A stretch of DNA of 64,000 bases from an uncultured Acidobacteriaceae bacterium (GCA_963781245.1 CAWAFB010000026.1:17304-81303); one strand, 5' to 3'; positions 3,994 through 64,000 are shown, counted from the first letter of the stretch. The notes: generated by a model not told the origin, from the letters alone. Translations and numbers: made by a program.

Positions 3994-4882
3994 TCTCCAT
4001 CGGATCGAGCTGTTGCAGGCGTTCGGTGCCGAAGCGCTCCACGGCGAACGAGCCCATCACCCCGCCATAAAACATCGCCTTCTTGAAGACCGCCGGGGTC
4101 AGTTCCTTCTGCGAAGCGAGATAGCCGAAGAAGCCGCCTGCGAACGAGTCGCCCGCGCCCGTTGGATCGACGACCTCGGCCAGAGGCAGCGCCGGAGCAC
4201 GGAAGGGCAGCAACGTCCGGCGGCCATCGCCCTCGAACGAGCGATGGCTGAAGAACGCGGTCGCTCCGAATTCGCCGTGCTTCACGATCAGACTCTTTGG
4301 CCCCATGGCAAGAATCTTTTCCGCCGCCTGAACCAGGTTCGCGTCTTTCGCCAGCAGTTTTGCTTCGCCATCGTTGATCAGCAATCCGTCCAGGCCATGG
4401 AGAACGCGCTCCAGGTTTCCGCGATGATCGTTGATCCAGTAGTTCATCGTGTCACCGCAGACCAGCTTTGCCTTGGGCATTTTGCTGCGTACGTCGGCCT
4501 GCAGTACCGGATCGATGTTGGCCAGAAAGAGATACTCGCTGTCCTGGTATTCGGCGGGAATTTTCGGGGTGAACCTTTGAAAGACGTTAAGTTCGGTGGT
4601 TAGCGTCTGAGCTTCATTCAGATTTCTCAGGTAAGAACCGCTCCAGAAGAAGCTCTTGCCGGTCGTGTGCTCGATGCCGCGCGTATCGATGCCGCGCCGG
4701 GTCAGGATGGCTTCGTGCTCCCTGGTGAAGTCTTCTCCGACGACGGCAATCACGCGCACGTCGGTAAAGTAGCTGGCAGCGAGCGCAAAATGAGTGGCCG
4801 CTCCGCCGACGCAGCGTTCCGCGCGTCCGGAGGGTGTCTCAATGGTGTCGAACGCAACACTGCCTACGACTAGAATCGCCAT
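3947..4882 (-). CDS. PfkB-family carbohydrate/nucleoside kinase
   Basis: N-terminal VVGSVAFD and C-terminal DPTGAGDSFAGGF motifs typical of the ribokinase/PfkB family. Confidence 0.8.
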   Translation of the reverse strand: MAILVVGSVAFDTIETPSGRAERCVGGAATHFALAASYFTDVRVIAVVGEDFTREHEAILTRRGIDTRGIEHTTGKSFFWSGSYLRNLNEAQTLTTELNVFQRFTPKIPAEYQDSEYLFLANIDPVLQADVRSKMPKAKLVCGDTMNYWINDHRGNLERVLHGLDGLLINDGEAKLLAKDANLVQAAEKILAMGPKSLIVKHGEFGATAFFSHRSFEGDGRRTLLPFRAPALPLAEVVDPTGAGDSFAGGFFGYLASQKELTPAVFKKAMFYGGVMGSFAVERFGTERLQQLDPMEIDERFALFRELSHLD

Positions 4883-31740: not shown

Positions 31741-33969
31741 GTGAGCAAAGTGCAAGTCCAGGTGGATTGGAAACGGTCCGGCTGTTTCGGCGCCGGGGGA
31801 ATCCGCATATCCGTTGAGACTCTTATTCCTGTCGTTCTTCTGTGCCTGAGCGTCTTCCCGTCCGCTGCACAGACTAATTCCAAAAATGTGCTGGTACTCT
31901 TTACGCAATTCCATCGTGGCCCAAATCTGTGGCTGGATTCAATCGAATCCACAGCGCGCGCCCGCGTTCCTGGTGCAGTGAATTTTTTCAGTTCGTATCT
32001 CGAATATTCCCAATTAAATGACAGGGCTTATCTGGACAGCGAGGCTGAAACTTTGCACCGCGAATACCATGACGTGAAGTTCGATCTCGTAATTGCCGTT
32101 GCCTATCCAGCGCTTGAATTCGCGGTGCAGCACCGTGACAAAATTTTTCCGGGTGTGCCCATCGTCTTTACGTCAATTGACCCCGAATTGGAATTGAAAG
32201 GGCAGAAATGGCCTAGCGTGACGGGTTACGCAAGTCGTCTCGGTATTGGAGAGACGGTCGATCTGGCGCTTCGTCTTCATCCAGATACAAAGGCGGTCGC
32301 CGTTATCTCGCACGATTCGGGATTATGGTGGGCCGCCGCGCATTCCGCGCTTCTTCCTCATCAAGATAAGGTGAGGGAGATTGACATCATCGGACTGCCC
32401 AGTAGTCAGATGCTCGAGAGAGTTGCTTCGCTCCCACCCCATGCTGTGGTGGTATTTCAGGTTCTGATGAGCGAGTATGCTCAACCGGCAACCGGAATCT
32501 ATGACGCGGTGGAGGCAATCGCGATGCGCCTTCCGACCTATTCTCCCTTTATAAACCTAGCTCTGGGTCATGGCGGCATTGGTGGAGCTGACCGTGACAT
32601 CCCGAAAGAGGCCCGATTAACCGGGGAACTCGCTGGACGAGTGTTATCAGGCGAGCGCGCGGACGACATTCCCATTGTTAATGATTTCAATGTTCAGTTC
32701 GTTGTGGATTGGCGGGCGCTCCAGAGGTGGCATATTCCAGAGTCTGCTCTGCCGGCGGGCAGCGTGATTCTGTACAGACCCCCTTCGTTGTGGGAGAGCT
32801 ACCGAAGATACGTTATCGCCACCATCGTTGTGATTGCTGTCCTGCTGCTGTTGATCATCGGACTGCTGTGGGAGCGAGCGAGAAAGCGGAAGGCTGAAGC
32901 TGAGCTTCGCGAAAGCGAAAAGCGTTTCCGGGTGATGACGGATACGACGCCGTCACTGGTGTGGATGTGCGATCCGAAAGGAAAGATTACGTATCTGAAT
33001 GAGCGGCGGATCGCGTTTACGGGCCCTGGCTCGAATGCGGGGTACGGCGATAGCTGGGCTACGTATGTCCATCCGGATGATCTGAGAAACGTGAAGGATG
33101 GCATGTCACAGGGCTTGAAAGACCGCCAGCCGTTTTCGCGAGAGTACAGGCTGCGGCGGAGCGATGGCGTTTATCGGTGGATGTTCGACGTGGCGACACC
33201 CAGGGTGAATGGCGACGGGTCATTCGGCGGATTCATTGGTTCGGCGATTGATGTGACGGAGCAGAAGCTGGCCCAGCAGGCCCTCGAGCAGGTGAGCGGT
33301 CAACTGATCGAGGCACAGGAGAAGGAGCGCCGCCGTATCGCGAGAGATCTGCACGACGACATTTGCCAGCGGCTGGCGCTGCTGTCGATGGAGATTGAAC
33401 AGACGAATCGCAGCTCGAATGAATTATCAAAGCCCACGAAGACGAGCCTGGAGGAGATTCGCAGACATTGTTCGGAGATTGCGGGTGACGTTCAGTCGCT
33501 GTCGCATCAGCTGCACTCGTCGAAGCTGGATTATCTCGGGATTACGGCGGCGATCCGCGGCTTCTGCAATGAGTTTTCAAAACAGCACGGAGTCAGCGTG
33601 AAGTTCACAGACAGAGACGTGCCGAGGCCTCTGCCTAAAGATGTCTCGCTGTGCCTTTTCCGGGTTGCACAGGAGGCGCTGCATAACGCAGTCAAGTACA
33701 GCGGTATGAGCGAGTTCACCGTGGAATTGAGCGGCGTGGAGGATGCGGTCCACTTGGTGGTAAGCGATGCCGGTGCAGGCTTCGACGTGGAAGAGGCGCG
33801 GAAGAGGCGCGGACTGGGGCTGCTGAGCATGCAGGAGCGCGTGCACCTGGTACAGGGGACGTTCTCCGTTGAATCGCAACCGGGAGAGGGAACGAGGATT
33901 CTCGCGCTAGTGCCGGTCGCCGGCGTCGCAGTTAGTGCGGGAGATCATCAAGTCCTGAATGTGAGATAG
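31741..33969 (+). CDS. sensor histidine kinase (periplasmic ABC-substrate-binding-like domain, TM, PAS, HisKA_3, HATPase_c)
   Basis: NarL-partner-type H-box RRIARDLHDDICQRL and C-terminal GLGLLSMQERV...GEGT. There is no adjacent response regulator. Confidence 0.8.
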   Translation: MSKVQVQVDWKRSGCFGAGGIRISVETLIPVVLLCLSVFPSAAQTNSKNVLVLFTQFHRGPNLWLDSIESTARARVPGAVNFFSSYLEYSQLNDRAYLDSEAETLHREYHDVKFDLVIAVAYPALEFAVQHRDKIFPGVPIVFTSIDPELELKGQKWPSVTGYASRLGIGETVDLALRLHPDTKAVAVISHDSGLWWAAAHSALLPHQDKVREIDIIGLPSSQMLERVASLPPHAVVVFQVLMSEYAQPATGIYDAVEAIAMRLPTYSPFINLALGHGGIGGADRDIPKEARLTGELAGRVLSGERADDIPIVNDFNVQFVVDWRALQRWHIPESALPAGSVILYRPPSLWESYRRYVIATIVVIAVLLLLIIGLLWERARKRKAEAELRESEKRFRVMTDTTPSLVWMCDPKGKITYLNERRIAFTGPGSNAGYGDSWATYVHPDDLRNVKDGMSQGLKDRQPFSREYRLRRSDGVYRWMFDVATPRVNGDGSFGGFIGSAIDVTEQKLAQQALEQVSGQLIEAQEKERRRIARDLHDDICQRLALLSMEIEQTNRSSNELSKPTKTSLEEIRRHCSEIAGDVQSLSHQLHSSKLDYLGITAAIRGFCNEFSKQHGVSVKFTDRDVPRPLPKDVSLCLFRVAQEALHNAVKYSGMSEFTVELSGVEDAVHLVVSDAGAGFDVEEARKRRGLGLLSMQERVHLVQGTFSVESQPGEGTRILALVPVAGVAVSAGDHQVLNVR

Positions 33970-42009: not shown

Positions 42010-42086
42010 TGGTGGGCCCACCAGGACTCGAACCTGGAACCAAAGCATTATGAGTGCTCTGCTCTAACCGATTGAGCTATAGGCCC
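42010..42086 (-). tRNA. tRNA with anticodon CAT (Met or, more likely, lysidine-type Ile2)
   Basis: Manual fold: GGGCCTA-TA-GCTC-AATCGGTTA-GAGC-A-GAGCA-CTCATAA-TGCTT-TGGTT-CCAGG-TTCGAGT-CCTGG-TGGGCCC-A-CCA (77 nt, CCA encoded). C4-G69/C5-G68 and the UGGUU variable loop resemble tRNA-Ile2. Confidence 0.85.
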
Positions 42087-42367: not shown

Positions 42368-42919
42368 ATGATTTCTCTACGCTCTGAGCTGCGGCGTAAG
42401 CTTCTGACGTATTTCTACACGAATCGTTCAGCGCGTGTGTATGTCCGTCAGTTAGCGAGTGCTTTGGGCGTGGATTCAACCAATCTGTCACGCGAACTGG
42501 CACGGCTGGAGCGGGAAGGGCTCTTGCGGTCTGAGATTGAGGGCAGGCAACGCTATTACAGCATCAACTCACAGTATCCCCATCTGAAAGCTGTCTTTTC
42601 ACTTCTTCAGGGAACGATAGGCATTGTGCCAACACTCGCAACGGCCTTACATCGCGTGGAAGGCATCGAAAAGGCATACCTCTATGGTTCTTTCGCCAAG
42701 AACGAGGCCGATGCGTCCAGCGATATTGACCTGCTAATCGTGGGATATCCCGATGCGATCAGACTGGCAGCGGAAGTCTCCCGCCTGGAGAAAATACTTC
42801 ATCGGGAAGTTAGCTACACGACACTCAAGCCACAGGAACTGAAAAGAAAGCTTACGGCGCATGACCCGTTTCTTACAGATGTCTGGCAAGGAAAGCGAAT
42901 CGAGCTAATCGGCCAATGA
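42368..42919 (+). CDS. winged-HTH (ArsR-like) + nucleotidyltransferase-domain protein (MNT-like)
   Basis: N-terminal VRQLASALGVDSTNLSRELARLEREGLL, followed by the NTase motif YLYGSFAKNEADASSDIDLLIV. Confidence 0.7.
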   Translation: MISLRSELRRKLLTYFYTNRSARVYVRQLASALGVDSTNLSRELARLEREGLLRSEIEGRQRYYSINSQYPHLKAVFSLLQGTIGIVPTLATALHRVEGIEKAYLYGSFAKNEADASSDIDLLIVGYPDAIRLAAEVSRLEKILHREVSYTTLKPQELKRKLTAHDPFLTDVWQGKRIELIGQ

Positions 42920-42947
42920 ACACGAAGGCTGTCCCTCATTGGTTTTT
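42913..42947 (+). terminator. terminator-like hairpin overlapping the stop codon of the NTase gene
   Basis: CCAATGA-(16 nt)-TCATTGG followed by TTTTT. Confidence 0.55.
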
Positions 42948-42982
42948 CAGAGTTCAGGTTGTGTTGTCGGCAACCCGGACAT

Positions 42983-43840
42983 GTGCGCTGAGCAGCACAC
43001 TGTTCAGGAGGGTTGAAGTCCCTCTGGCGCTCAAATGAGGGGCGCCATATCCAAAAGCGGGGTTCGTAGCCTCGCTGGCCGGAGAGAGTGGAAGGTATGA
43101 AGACGTCTAAACGGGCACGAAGGCGAAAGCTGGATATAGCCAAGACTGATCTAGAGCCACCGCTTTGCAGTAGTCCGGAGGGCAGGGTGTCCACCGCGAG
43201 GTGGAATCTGAAGGGCATGAGGAGAAGTACCGGGCCGTAATCGATGGGGAAACCCAAGATGAACCGGTCGGCCAAAGGTGGGGCAAGGTCGAGTCTGCAT
43301 GTCTGAGACGAAGGCGTTCTCATTCACCCACCGCACCAAGGTGATTGCGGGCGGCACGGTAGGGAAGAACAGTGTGTGACCTCAGGAGAACTGACGGAGT
43401 CCCCGGGTGGCACCGGGGTAAGCAGACCTATAAGCGCAAGCGAAATGGCGAGCGACGCTCGGTCAGTAGTCGGACGGCTGAATAGTACCTCAAGCATGGC
43501 GAAAGTCATGTGACCGGGCGACCGGCGACGGAAGTGGGTCGGGGAAGGCAGCCGGCGAAGGCGGTTGGGAAGAGAAAGCCAGGCAGTGAGTAAGGACGGA
43601 AAGGTGGATCAGTTCCATGAGTGAAATACCCGTACATTTCCGCCCGAGAATACTGTCGGACTGGATTGATCCGACGGATGCGAAGAAGGTCCACTCATTA
43701 ACGAGTACCGTTAGTACCTTGATTGCATCTCGGAAGGGTGAGCCTTCGTGAAAGCTGCATGCGGGAAAACCGCACGTGCAGTTTGAGCGGCGGACGGTGG
43801 CCAGCCTCGGGGCAGCTCGATGCGCCACCTCCGACCCGAC
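42983..43840 (+). mobile_element. ORF-less group II intron-like ribozyme, copy 1 (about 858 nt)
   Basis: 5' GTGCG. Domain V is at 43752-43784 (AAGCTGCATGCGGGAAAACCGCACGTGCAGTTT, with an AGC triad position, GAAA-type loop and CGCAC bulge region). Domain VI has a bulged A at 43834, 7 nt from the 3' end ...CCGAC. There is no RT-sized ORF in any frame. Confidence 0.8.
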
Positions 43841-62129: not shown

Positions 62130-62206
62130 TGGTGGGCCTACCAGGACTCGAACCTGGAACCAAAGCATTATGAGTGCTCTGCTCTAACCGATTGAGCTAT
62201 AGGCCC
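62130..62206 (-). tRNA. tRNA with anticodon CAT (Met or lysidine-type Ile2), second copy
   Basis: Identical to 42010-42086 except for one base (62139 T versus 42019 C). That change turns the 6:67 pair from G-U to A-U. Confidence 0.85.
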
Positions 62207-62325: not shown

Positions 62326-62703
62326 ATGACTTATTGCAACCGCAGATTTGATTGTAGCGAATTGCAGCGGGTCCTTGGCGAATCCCTGCGTCCGGTTTCG
62401 GAAGCTTACCTGCACGGGCGTTTAGTACTTCGAGTCGCTGAAATGCACGTTCCACAGCTTCAGGGGAAGGATGCACGTACGCTGGCTCACAGTGACGCTA
62501 CTGTGGCCTGCGATCTTCATAGTTGTAAATGCTTCGGCACCTGCCTCTCCTAGCCGGGTGAGCATTGTGTGTCGTAAAGAATGCAGTACAAACTCTTTCG
62601 AGAAGCGATAAACACGTTTCCCTCTGACCGTGGTATGGGCGACCTTTGCATGCATATGATCGAGCGATGTCACAAGGAATAGTCGGCTTCGAATGATGCT
62701 CAC
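62326..62703 (-). pseudogene. tyrosine integrase remnant: N-terminally truncated and frameshifted at the catalytic Tyr codon
   Basis: ...FVLHSLRHTMLTRLGEAGAEAFTTMKIAGHSSVTVSQR, then a frame change. Restoring one T near 62479 gives QRYVHPSPEAVERAFQRLE. The downstream frame reads into the tRNA half. Confidence 0.75.
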
Positions 62704-62952
62704 CTGCGGTCTGAGCGCTCAGTCACTGAGAGGGAGGTGGGGTCAAATCTCTGTGGAGTTTCAACCTTTAGACCGTTCTGGCGTGAAATTTGTGCTTCCC
62801 TCAAAAAAGATTTTTTAAGGTGGCGGTGAAGAAGTCGCCAGGTTCAACTGACGCCTAGACGCGGAGCCACGCGCTCACAAATGCCCGCTCGGGGGCACGA
62901 CAGCAGAGCTGATTCAAAATGGTTGCCGTTAACGCAAGTCGGCTTAACGGAA

Positions 62953-63796
62953 GTGCGCGCTGAGCAGCACGTTGTTCAGGAGGGTTAAAGTCCCTCTGGC
63001 GCCCAAATGAGGGGCGCCATATCCAAAAGCGGGGTTCGTAGCCTCGCCGGCCGGAGAAAGTGGAAGGTATGGAGACGTCTAAACGGGCACGAAGGCGAAA
63101 GCTGGACACAGCCAAGACGGACCTGAAGCCGCCGCTTGTGGTACTCCGGAGGGCAGGGTGTCCACCGTGAGGTGGGATCCGAAGGGCATGAGGAGAAGTA
63201 CCGGGCCGTAATCGATGGGGAAACCCAAGATGAACCGGTCGGCCAAAGGTGGGACAAGGTCGAGTCTGCACTTCTGAGACGAAGGCGTTCTCATTCACCC
63301 ACCGCACCAAGGTGTTTGCGGACGGCACGGTACGGAAGAACAGCGTGTGACCTCAGGAGGACTGATCAAGTCTCCGGGTGGCAACCGGAGTAAGCAAGCC
63401 TATAAGCGTAAGCGAAGTGGTGAGTGATGCTCGGTCAGTAGTCGGACTGCCAAATATTACCTCAAGCGCGGCGAAAGCCGCGTGACCGAGTGATCGGCGG
63501 CTAGAGTGGGTCGGGGAAGGTGGCAGGCGAAGGCAGGAAGGAAGAGACGGGCAGTCAGCAGAGTAAGGATGATGAGGTGGATCAGTTCGCTTAGCGAAAA
63601 ACCCGTACATCATCGTCCGAGGATACTGAAGGCCCGACCCAACCGGACGGGTGAAACGAATGGCCCACTTGTTCGTTGCCTTTTCGTTGCATCTTGGAGT
63701 CCCGTGTCTTCGTGAAAGCCGTGTGCGGGAAAACTGCATGCACGGTTTGGGCGGCGGACGGAGGCCAGCGCGTAAGCGCGCCTCCTCCGACCCGAC
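62953..63796 (+). mobile_element. ORF-less group II intron-like ribozyme, copy 2 (about 844 nt)
   Basis: 5' GTGCG. Domain V is at 63716-63748 (AAGCCGTGTGCGGGAAAACTGCATGCACGGTTT). Domain VI ends ...CCGACCCGAC. It is roughly 85% identical to copy 1 by eye, except for a divergent domain IV stub. Confidence 0.8.
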
Positions 63797-64000
63797 AAAT
63801 GTCCGGATAGCAGGAGATCCTTCATGCGACATGACGGAATGCGCCGGGAATCGACGCCTGCTCGCGGCCGCAACAATTGAAGTGAGCTGGAGAGAAGAGC
63901 CCTTCGAAGAGTCCTGGCTTGAGTTCCTTCAGGAGCGCCACAACTTCAGATGTAGCCATCGCCGATGTATCCGCGCCAGTGCCTTTCATCCTTGTGCCTT

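Follow-up and report, generated by a model that had tools for sequence, protein, structure and literature searches.

Two ORF-less group II introns with intact-looking ribozymes in an uncultured Acidobacteriaceae bacterium, and their full-length relatives

ORF-less group II introns form a recognised, reputedly rare category in bacteria (PMC4424553; Simon et al. 2008, as cited in PMC8919778), and few are expected to have been overlooked (PMC4424553). The ORF-less TeI3 introns of Thermosynechococcus elongatus have been mobilised experimentally by intron-encoded proteins (IEPs) from other introns (Mohr, Ghanem & Lambowitz 2010, PMC2882425). In characterised introns the DIVa region is a binding site of the IEP (PMC2882425). 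The element described here, copy 1, occupies 42983-43840 on the plus strand of a 64-kb stretch of DNA (64,000 nt, the window) from an uncultured Acidobacteriaceae bacterium, and a second copy lies downstream of it in the window (Table 1). The features read from the sequence confirm that copy 1 is a genuine group II intron that is ORF-less and has an intact-looking ribozyme. A preliminary description had given its first bases as GTGCG and its length as about 858 nt, had recognised a domain V (DV) hairpin with AGC and a GAAA-type loop, and had placed a bulged A in domain VI (DVI) at 43834, 7 nt from the 3' end. All of these assignments hold, the DV loop being GAAAA.

Group II ribozymes are built from six helical domains around a central wheel. 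The introns begin with GUGYG and end with AY, their DV is about 34 nt long with an AGC catalytic triad and a 2-nt bulge, and in their DVI an adenosine bulges out 7-8 nt before the 3' splice site. The boundaries are GUGCG...AC in copy 1, which ends in ...CCGACCCGAC at 43840, and GCGCG...AC in copy 2. A43834 is unpaired and invariant in 31 of 31 aligned relatives, and the degenerate DV pattern used in the searches gave 0 matches in 100 shuffles. The Rfam covariance-model check proposed in the preliminary description was run, and both copies match DV/DVI and part of domain I (DI). In copy 1 the full RF00029 model (Intron_gpII, domains V-VI) aligns to 43750-43840 with 39.6 bits (E = 1e-5 in a local scan and 2.8e-4 over the whole window) and RF02001 (group-II-D1D4-3) aligns to 43190-43375 with 31.6 bits, so that copy 1 falls just short of both curated cut-offs (40 and 32 bits, respectively), by 0.4 bits each. 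Copy 2 is above the cut-off for RF00029 (43.7 bits) and below that for RF02001 (29.4 bits). The Rfam scan of the 64-kb window found a group II signal nowhere besides these two copies.

The best explanation of the architecture is that both copies are of an IIB-like type with a large domain I. The compact class IIC architecture does not describe an 858-nt element with a 398-nt DI, an RF02001 match and full-length parents of about 2030 nt. A PDB sequence search with the parent IEP gave the GsI-IIC RT as the nearest solved relative (1e-61), and the RNA itself is not IIC-like. DI includes an optional, well conserved module of 88 nt (43085-43172, GGUAUGGAGACGUCUAAACGGGCACGAAGGCGAAAGCUGG...). The two window copies have it, as do many relatives, while about 10 others, ORF-less and full-length alike, lack exactly this segment.

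Table 1. Features of the two intron copies. A slash marks the insertion point in target sites; column numbers refer to alignment A2.
Feature	Coordinates	Strand	Basis or remarks
Copy 1, complete ORF-less group II intron, 858 nt	42983-43840	+	Rfam matches; whole-length homology to full-length and ORF-less relatives; 176/182 consensus pairs
5' boundary of copy 1, GUGCG	42983-42987	+	Read from sequence; aligns with the 5' ends of all relatives
IBS1, copy 1 (CGGACAT), last 7 nt of 5' exon	42976-42982	+	7 contiguous bp with EBS1 43299-43305
Domain I	42988-43385	+	Compensatory changes in closing helices (columns 6-25 with 398-416); RF02001 match 43190-43375
EBS1, copy 1 (AUGUCUG)	43299-43305	+	Loop of hairpin 43288-43315; pairing and co-variation
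Domain II	43386-43471	+	Helices 17-18: both sides changed in 13/19 pairs
Domain III	43475-43554	+	Helices 22-26; closing helix 6/6 pairs changed on both sides
Domain IV	43555-43749	+	ORF-deletion scar, junction about 43702-43712; DIVa-like hairpin 43594-43645
In-frame IEP remnant, 44 codons	43617-43751	+	First ~28-32 codons joined to last ~12, original stop codon; ATG at 43617
Domain V, catalytic hairpin, 33 nt	43752-43784	+	AGC 43753-43755; two-base AC bulge; GAAAA loop; full-model RF00029 alignment
Domain VI	43789-43836	+	Unpaired branch-point A 43834, seventh base from 3' end
Flanking exons, copy 1			5' ...CCGGACAU, then 3' UACACCC...
Target site, copy 1			GTCGGCAACCCGGACAT/TA
Copy 2, ORF-less group II intron, 842 nt	62955-63796	+	RF00029 43.7 bits; 181/182 consensus pairs
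IBS1, copy 2 (CGGAAGU)	62948-62954	+	7 contiguous bp with EBS1 63270-63276
EBS1, copy 2 (ACUUCUG)	63270-63276	+	Pairs with IBS1
Domain V, copy 2	63716-63748	+	
Domain VI, copy 2	63753-63792	+	Branch A 63790
Flanking exons, copy 2			5' ...CGGAAGU, then 3' AAAUGUC...
Target site, copy 2			GTCGGCTTAACGGAAGT/AA

The fold and its co-variation were analysed with RNAalifold on alignment A2, which holds 31 complete ORF-less sequences that are less than 97% identical to each other. The consensus comprises six domains. Of its 182 pairs, 86 show one or more compensatory double changes. The consensus fold was predicted from the same alignment that was used for the counts, which favours the fold, and the margin is nevertheless large: 97.7% of the cells form a standard pair, compared with 91.0% after shuffling (0 of 500 shuffles as high) and 41-44% with the partners slid by 1-3 columns, and 86 pairs changed on both sides compare with 38.4 after shuffling and 14-34 after sliding by 1-3 columns. 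Every domain contributes to the co-variation signal, and each closing helix has compensatory changes. The four variable pairs of the lower DV stem show 12, 4, 12 and 8 double changes among the 31 sequences. The DIVa-like hairpin surrounds the former start codon, and all 7 pairs of its main stem (helix 30) show changes on both sides; co-variation keeps this stem even in ORF-less copies whose ATG is gone. Selection on RNA structure, which the preliminary description had proposed from DV and DVI, is supported by all six domains; helices outside DV and DVI are maintained as well, and 176 of the 182 consensus pairs are formed in copy 1.

Relatives were found by scanning one genome per species for the degenerate DV pattern and comparing the matches with copy 1 by BLAST. 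Full-length relatives are about 2030 nt long (86% identity). Five of them (L062, L081, L084, L122 and L049) are 80-87% identical to copy 1 in the ribozyme parts (DI-III and DV-VI), and the first four are, according to their record titles, from Acidobacteriaceae, Terriglobales and related genomes. The full-length relatives have an extra 1.18-1.26 kb in domain IV (DIV), which encodes an RT/maturase. This IEP is about 430 aa long, has a YADD motif and a maturase region (RT+X), is without an endonuclease domain, and passes the NCBIfam model TIGR04416, "group II intron reverse transcriptase/maturase", with 385 bits against a cut-off of 300. The ORF-less relatives include L074 and L056 (Vicinamibacterales, 840 nt, 76% identical to copy 1) and L035. 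About 2 kb downstream of the full-length relative L062 there are two matches to the Acido-Lenti-1 sRNA above the Rfam cut-off (4123-4168 on the minus strand and 4280-4325 on the plus strand of that sequence).

Judged from its sequence, copy 1 descends by deletion from a mobile group II intron of the ordinary kind, since the start of the ORF (the ATG and about 28-32 codons) is joined in frame to the last 12 or so codons and the stop. Residues 1-32 of the L062 protein match 43617-43712 with 81% identity in a tblastn search. No Pfam domain was found in the 44-codon remnant, and the ORF remnant of copy 2 has decayed. Neither copy contains an RT/maturase ORF in any frame, as had been stated before for copy 1, where the ORF check and tblastn find the 44-codon remnant only. 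Across the 64-kb window, tblastn with the family RT/maturase detected nothing besides the 32-residue N-terminal remnant in copy 1.

Each copy carries an EBS1 that pairs over 7 bp with the IBS1 in its own 5' exon, and the paired sequences differ between the copies. The EBS1 loop (43297-43305 in copy 1) reads GCAUGUCUG in copy 1 and GCACUUCUG in copy 2, and one pair of the hairpin stem (A2 columns 322/336) is CG in 16 and UA in 15 sequences. Over the 31 sequences the run of contiguous pairs counted from exon position -1 averages 6.0, compared with 3.9 when the exons are permuted (0 of 2000 as high). Among 89 distinct members of the family the top three exon-intron pairs by mutual information join exon positions -3, -4 and -6 to 43301, 43302 and 43304, and 91-94% of these are Watson-Crick or GU. 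At least eight EBS1/IBS1 combinations occur among the ORF-less members. The copy 1 variant is found at one locus only. The EBS1 and target type of copy 2 are also found in the ORF-less L139, L162, L176, L201, L202 and L211 and in L184 and L245, which are full-length, have the 5' end GCGCG and contain open 432-aa ORFs. Members with the copy 2 EBS1 lie in unrelated flanks, which share no more than some 20 nt of target (consensus rTCGTCGGCAAaCCGGAAGT/). This dispersal and the EBS1/IBS1 match are signatures of retrohoming or retrotransposition by ORF-less copies on borrowed protein.

The targets share a conserved GTCGG motif at positions of about -17 to -12. For EBS2-IBS2, no intron position that co-varies with the exon was found among the 89 family members. 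Two EBS2 candidates, the hairpin loop 43006-43028 (GGGUUGAAG) and the AAUCGAU stretch at 43237-43246, were rejected, as they do not co-vary with the exon across relatives. The copy 1 site is occupied in three long-read assemblies (99.8-99.9% identity). It is also occupied in three short-read contigs, each of which ends a short way into the intron, and none of these six showed an empty site.

Copy 1 is located between convergent genes and starts 63 nt past the stop codon of a same-strand HTH and nucleotidyltransferase (MntA-like) gene. A scan for terminators and promoters around copy 1 gave nothing above background, and no terminator-like site was found between this gene and the intron. Neither copy interrupts a gene, and both are in non-coding DNA. 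Long antisense ORFs run across the introns (42814-43323, 43490-43828, 62855-63328 and 63353-63832, all on the minus strand), one of which is annotated as a 169-aa gene in public assemblies. They overlap a structured ribozyme; most likely they are spurious gene calls. The introns explain two "empty" intergenic stretches of 0.85 kb and the spurious ORFs called across them.

Several other features of the neighbourhood were recorded. A C-terminal fragment of a tyrosine (phage-type) integrase (62422-62703, minus strand) lies beside copy 2, between it and a tRNA-Met gene; it matches positions 121-161 of the 172 in the PF00589 profile with 24.5 bits, below the Pfam cut-off, and is probably a remnant of an integrated element. 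Two tRNA-Met(CAT) genes (42010-42086 and 62130-62206, both on the minus strand) are 20,120 nt apart and differ by one base. An intron copy lies 750-900 nt away from each of them, on the opposite strand, and nothing else between the two tRNA genes is repeated. A link between intron and tRNA-Met was rejected: outside the intron itself, no tRNA gene was found at any of 20 related loci, and the sole ARAGORN call (L175) is inside intron sequence. The proximity is treated as a coincidence or a feature of the source genome. Two of three long-read assemblies of the locus contain a DDE_3 transposase gene (373 aa) after a histidine-kinase gene (L001, 778-1899; L002, 773-1894). It would fall after window position 33969 and is absent from the window and from L003, which indicates an IS insertion polymorphism between strains.

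The features of the two copies are probably best explained by a non-autonomous intron for which a full-length relative's protein would provide splicing and mobilisation in trans. The preliminary description had suggested that an ORF-less intron with an intact core would need an RT/maturase acting in trans, and the Rfam matches, the six-domain fold, the EBS1-IBS1 pairing and the derivation by deletion from ORF-containing introns all point the same way. An ancestor of about 2 kb encoded the RT/maturase of about 430 aa in DIV, and a deletion spared the first 30 or so codons, the last 12 or so and the whole ribozyme. The RNA would be transcribed together with its surroundings, copy 1 lying 63 nt past the HTH-nucleotidyltransferase stop, and would fold into the six-domain ribozyme. 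Elsewhere in the cell a full-length relative would supply its protein, which would then bind the RNA, probably at the retained DIVa-like hairpin. Lariat splicing would proceed from the bulged A, and the ribonucleoprotein would reverse-splice into DNA sites that pair with the EBS1 loop, where the borrowed RT would copy the intron into DNA. Changes in EBS1 would redirect copies to new sites. Dependence on a protein in trans is suggested by the DIVa-like hairpin, which is kept by co-variation here and whose counterpart is an IEP site in characterised introns. The anatomy, the descent by deletion, the selection on structure, the EBS1/IBS1 co-variation and the dispersal to unrelated sites are read from the sequences; transcription, splicing and trans-mobilisation in the source genome are inferred.

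It is unlikely that the copies are instead dead relics, that is, ORF-less leftovers that no longer splice or move and are decaying neutrally. Both copies do lie in non-coding DNA, where a failure to splice would matter little, and no RT was found in the 64-kb window. The two copies are about 88% identical over their whole length, with similarity ending a few bases beyond the boundaries. The decayed ORF remnant of copy 2 is what neutral loss would leave, and identity between the copies is only 62% in DIV; it is 92% in DI, which means that decay is concentrated in the dispensable part of DIV, and the catalytic DV has been conserved, as have the branch A and the boundaries at either end. The consensus pairs tell the same story: seven are lost in one or other copy, as relics would lose them, against 15 that changed on both sides and are still paired (a further 12 changed on one side and are still paired), and 176 of 182 pairs are intact in copy 1 and 181 of 182 in copy 2. 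The 7-bp match of each EBS1 to its own flank is likewise hard to reconcile with relics. The non-consensus 5' end of copy 2, GCGCG, might be taken as a sign of decay, but it is common to at least eight ORF-less members and to full-length members with open ORFs and is therefore a trait of the lineage.

The sub-lineage with this 5' end comprises copy 2 (62955-62959) and L139, L147, L162, L165, L201, L211, L224, L184, L245 and L171. The change of U2 to C seems to be tolerated, since the sub-lineage includes full-length introns with open RT ORFs. Possibly the 5' splice site of copy 2-type introns is instead shifted 2 nt upstream (GUGCGCG), since the exon ends in ...GU.

The compensatory changes in DV and DVI between the copies, on which the preliminary description had laid weight, are real, and the pairs concerned stay paired. 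In DV they are 43756/43780 (UA to CG), 43758/43778 (CG to UA) and 43759/43777 (AU to GC), and in DVI 43798/43827 (UA to AU). They look like exchanged family alleles and not like changes that arose in place. Both copies are mosaics. Copy 1 is of L139 type in DI-DII and of L183/L062 type in DIII-DIV (43475-43749) and DVI (43789-43836), and its DV (43752-43784) is 100% identical to the L139 type. Copy 2 is of L139 type throughout, save for its DV (63716-63748), which is 100% identical to the L183 type. This looks like short-patch exchange of DV between intron copies, and the "compensatory changes" in DV would therefore be swapped alleles.

A ribozyme that splices alone or with a host factor and uses no IEP, as described for C.te.I1 of Clostridium tetani, is a very improbable alternative to a non-autonomous intron served in trans. 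One bacterial ORF-less intron does self-splice in an IEP-free genome (PMC4424553), and the intact ribozyme core and the lack of a nearby RT in the 64-kb window would suit such an intron; the dispersal of ORF-less copies to many unrelated sites with matched EBS1 requires reverse transcription, however, the DIVa-like hairpin is conserved by co-variation, and closely related IEP-encoding partners are abundant. Domestication of the ORF-less RNA as an RNA-guided nuclease or regulator is hardly credible: many ORF-less copies do combine a conserved core with a variable, guide-like EBS1, and HYERs are ORF-less group II RNAs with such an activity (Liu et al. 2024, as cited in bioRxiv 10.1101/2024.08.31.610620), but EBS1 matches the element's own flanking exon, which is the signature of insertion and not of guiding to a foreign target, conservation extends to DVI with its branch A and to the two splice boundaries, the RNA with its DI of about 400 nt is not of class IIC, the genomic neighbourhood is not conserved, and the co-option for another role that the preliminary description had allowed for is unsupported, the copies behaving like mobile introns.

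The preliminary description had also called ORF-less introns with a conserved core uncommon in bacteria. This agrees with the published view (PMC4424553), but within the present family ORF-less copies are numerous. A metagenome scan with a pattern that required DI, DIII and a short DIV matched at least 120 stretches. Among the first 120 matches 48 were ORF-less and the rest full-length, which is not the true ratio, as the pattern also caught about 68 full-length introns through TGAAAGC recurring inside the IEP ORF. The deletion junctions in A2 are of several types: one shared by copy 1 and L183, one shared by copy 2 and the majority (with the start codon lost), those of L195 and of L128 (which keeps a piece of the RT), and one in L074 and L056. 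In a neighbour-joining tree of DI the ORF state changes about 16 times, a number that recombination may inflate. From these sequences ORF loss looks recurrent in the family. The parent IEP family is very large: among the candidates scored, 5203 protein clusters reach E <= 1e-100, and none of the best 120 IEP clusters is on a contig longer than 1 Mb.

Most family members (EBS1 ACUAU, target ...GTCGGA N7 rTAGT/A) form twintrons: they sit within other group II introns, which are of different Rfam D1-D4 types, or within further copies of the family itself. Nesting is seen in the flanks of L206, L081, L062, L056 and L122, and also in L207, L199 and L224. L207 and L199 are inserted at exactly the same DII/DIII place in another family intron. 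At this DII/DIII boundary (43466-43486) copy 1 carries GTAGTCGGACGGCTGAATAGT/A and copy 2 CGGACTGCCAAATATT/A, a match to the canonical homing site of the family. L224 is an ORF-less intron of copy 2 type that sits inside domain IV of a full-length family member, both being on one DNA molecule. The window copies are from a branch with a changed EBS1 that has left the nested niche.

The most noteworthy by-product of the analysis is how large and diverse this family's ORF-less population is. Retargeting through EBS1 is frequent in the family. Dozens of distinct ORF-less members come from soil metagenomes, compared with the published rarity of such introns, and surveys based on ORFs would miss such a non-autonomous layer of retroelements. 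It would be a natural parallel to parasitism of the SINE/LINE type and to early steps proposed for the evolution of spliceosomal introns. It is conceivable, if quite improbable, that the ORF-less copies form a large and long-lived lineage of small programmable ribozymes, retargeted through one loop of 6-7 nt, some of which act without a dedicated IEP or are used by their hosts as RNA-guided agents that target DNA or RNA. If true, this lineage would be an IIB-type counterpart of the HYERs.

Compared with known systems, the copies are best read as members of a known category, ORF-less derivatives within an abundant family of soil retroelements. They resemble the TeI3 introns in nearly every respect, in that the ORF was deleted inside domain IV, with N- and C-terminal remnants on either side and an intact ribozyme, and in that there are lineages with different EBS, good EBS/IBS matches and insertions mostly outside genes (PMC2882425). 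Twintrons with ORF-containing relatives are a further likeness, as is dependence on the IEPs of related introns, which is predicted here from sequence. Unlike TeI3, whose host is a thermophilic cyanobacterium, the present family occurs, by the record titles of its relatives, in soil bacteria of Acidobacteriota type, and its parent IEP of about 430 aa is without an endonuclease domain. A single ancestral deletion accounts for the ORF-less introns of T. elongatus, whereas here the several junctions and the interleaved tree make ORF loss look recurrent.

In Methanosarcina acetivorans ORF-less and ORF-containing relatives also coexist, with habitual homing into group II introns and nesting (Dai & Zimmerly 2003, as cited in PMC4424553). 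That host is an archaeon, and the window copies, in contrast to the introns so described, are not nested and occupy ordinary intergenic DNA, following a change of EBS1. C.te.I1 of C. tetani is, like copy 1, an ORF-less group II intron of a bacterium, and its ribozyme works, as that of copy 1 would; it is a single copy in an IEP-free genome, self-splices and takes part in alternative splicing within a gene (PMC4424553, PMC3919590), whereas the window element, located outside genes, is one of a multi-copy family in which IEP-encoding partners abound. The HYER ribozymes share with it their origin as ORF-less group II derivatives whose catalytic core is conserved (Liu et al. 2024 Science, as cited in bioRxiv 10.1101/2024.08.31.610620). 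They are described there as compact RNAs of class IIC that recognise about 7 nt, act as hydrolytic endonucleases and hydrolyse DNA, whereas the window element has a large domain I, an EBS1 hairpin, a DVI with a branch point and intron-like boundaries.
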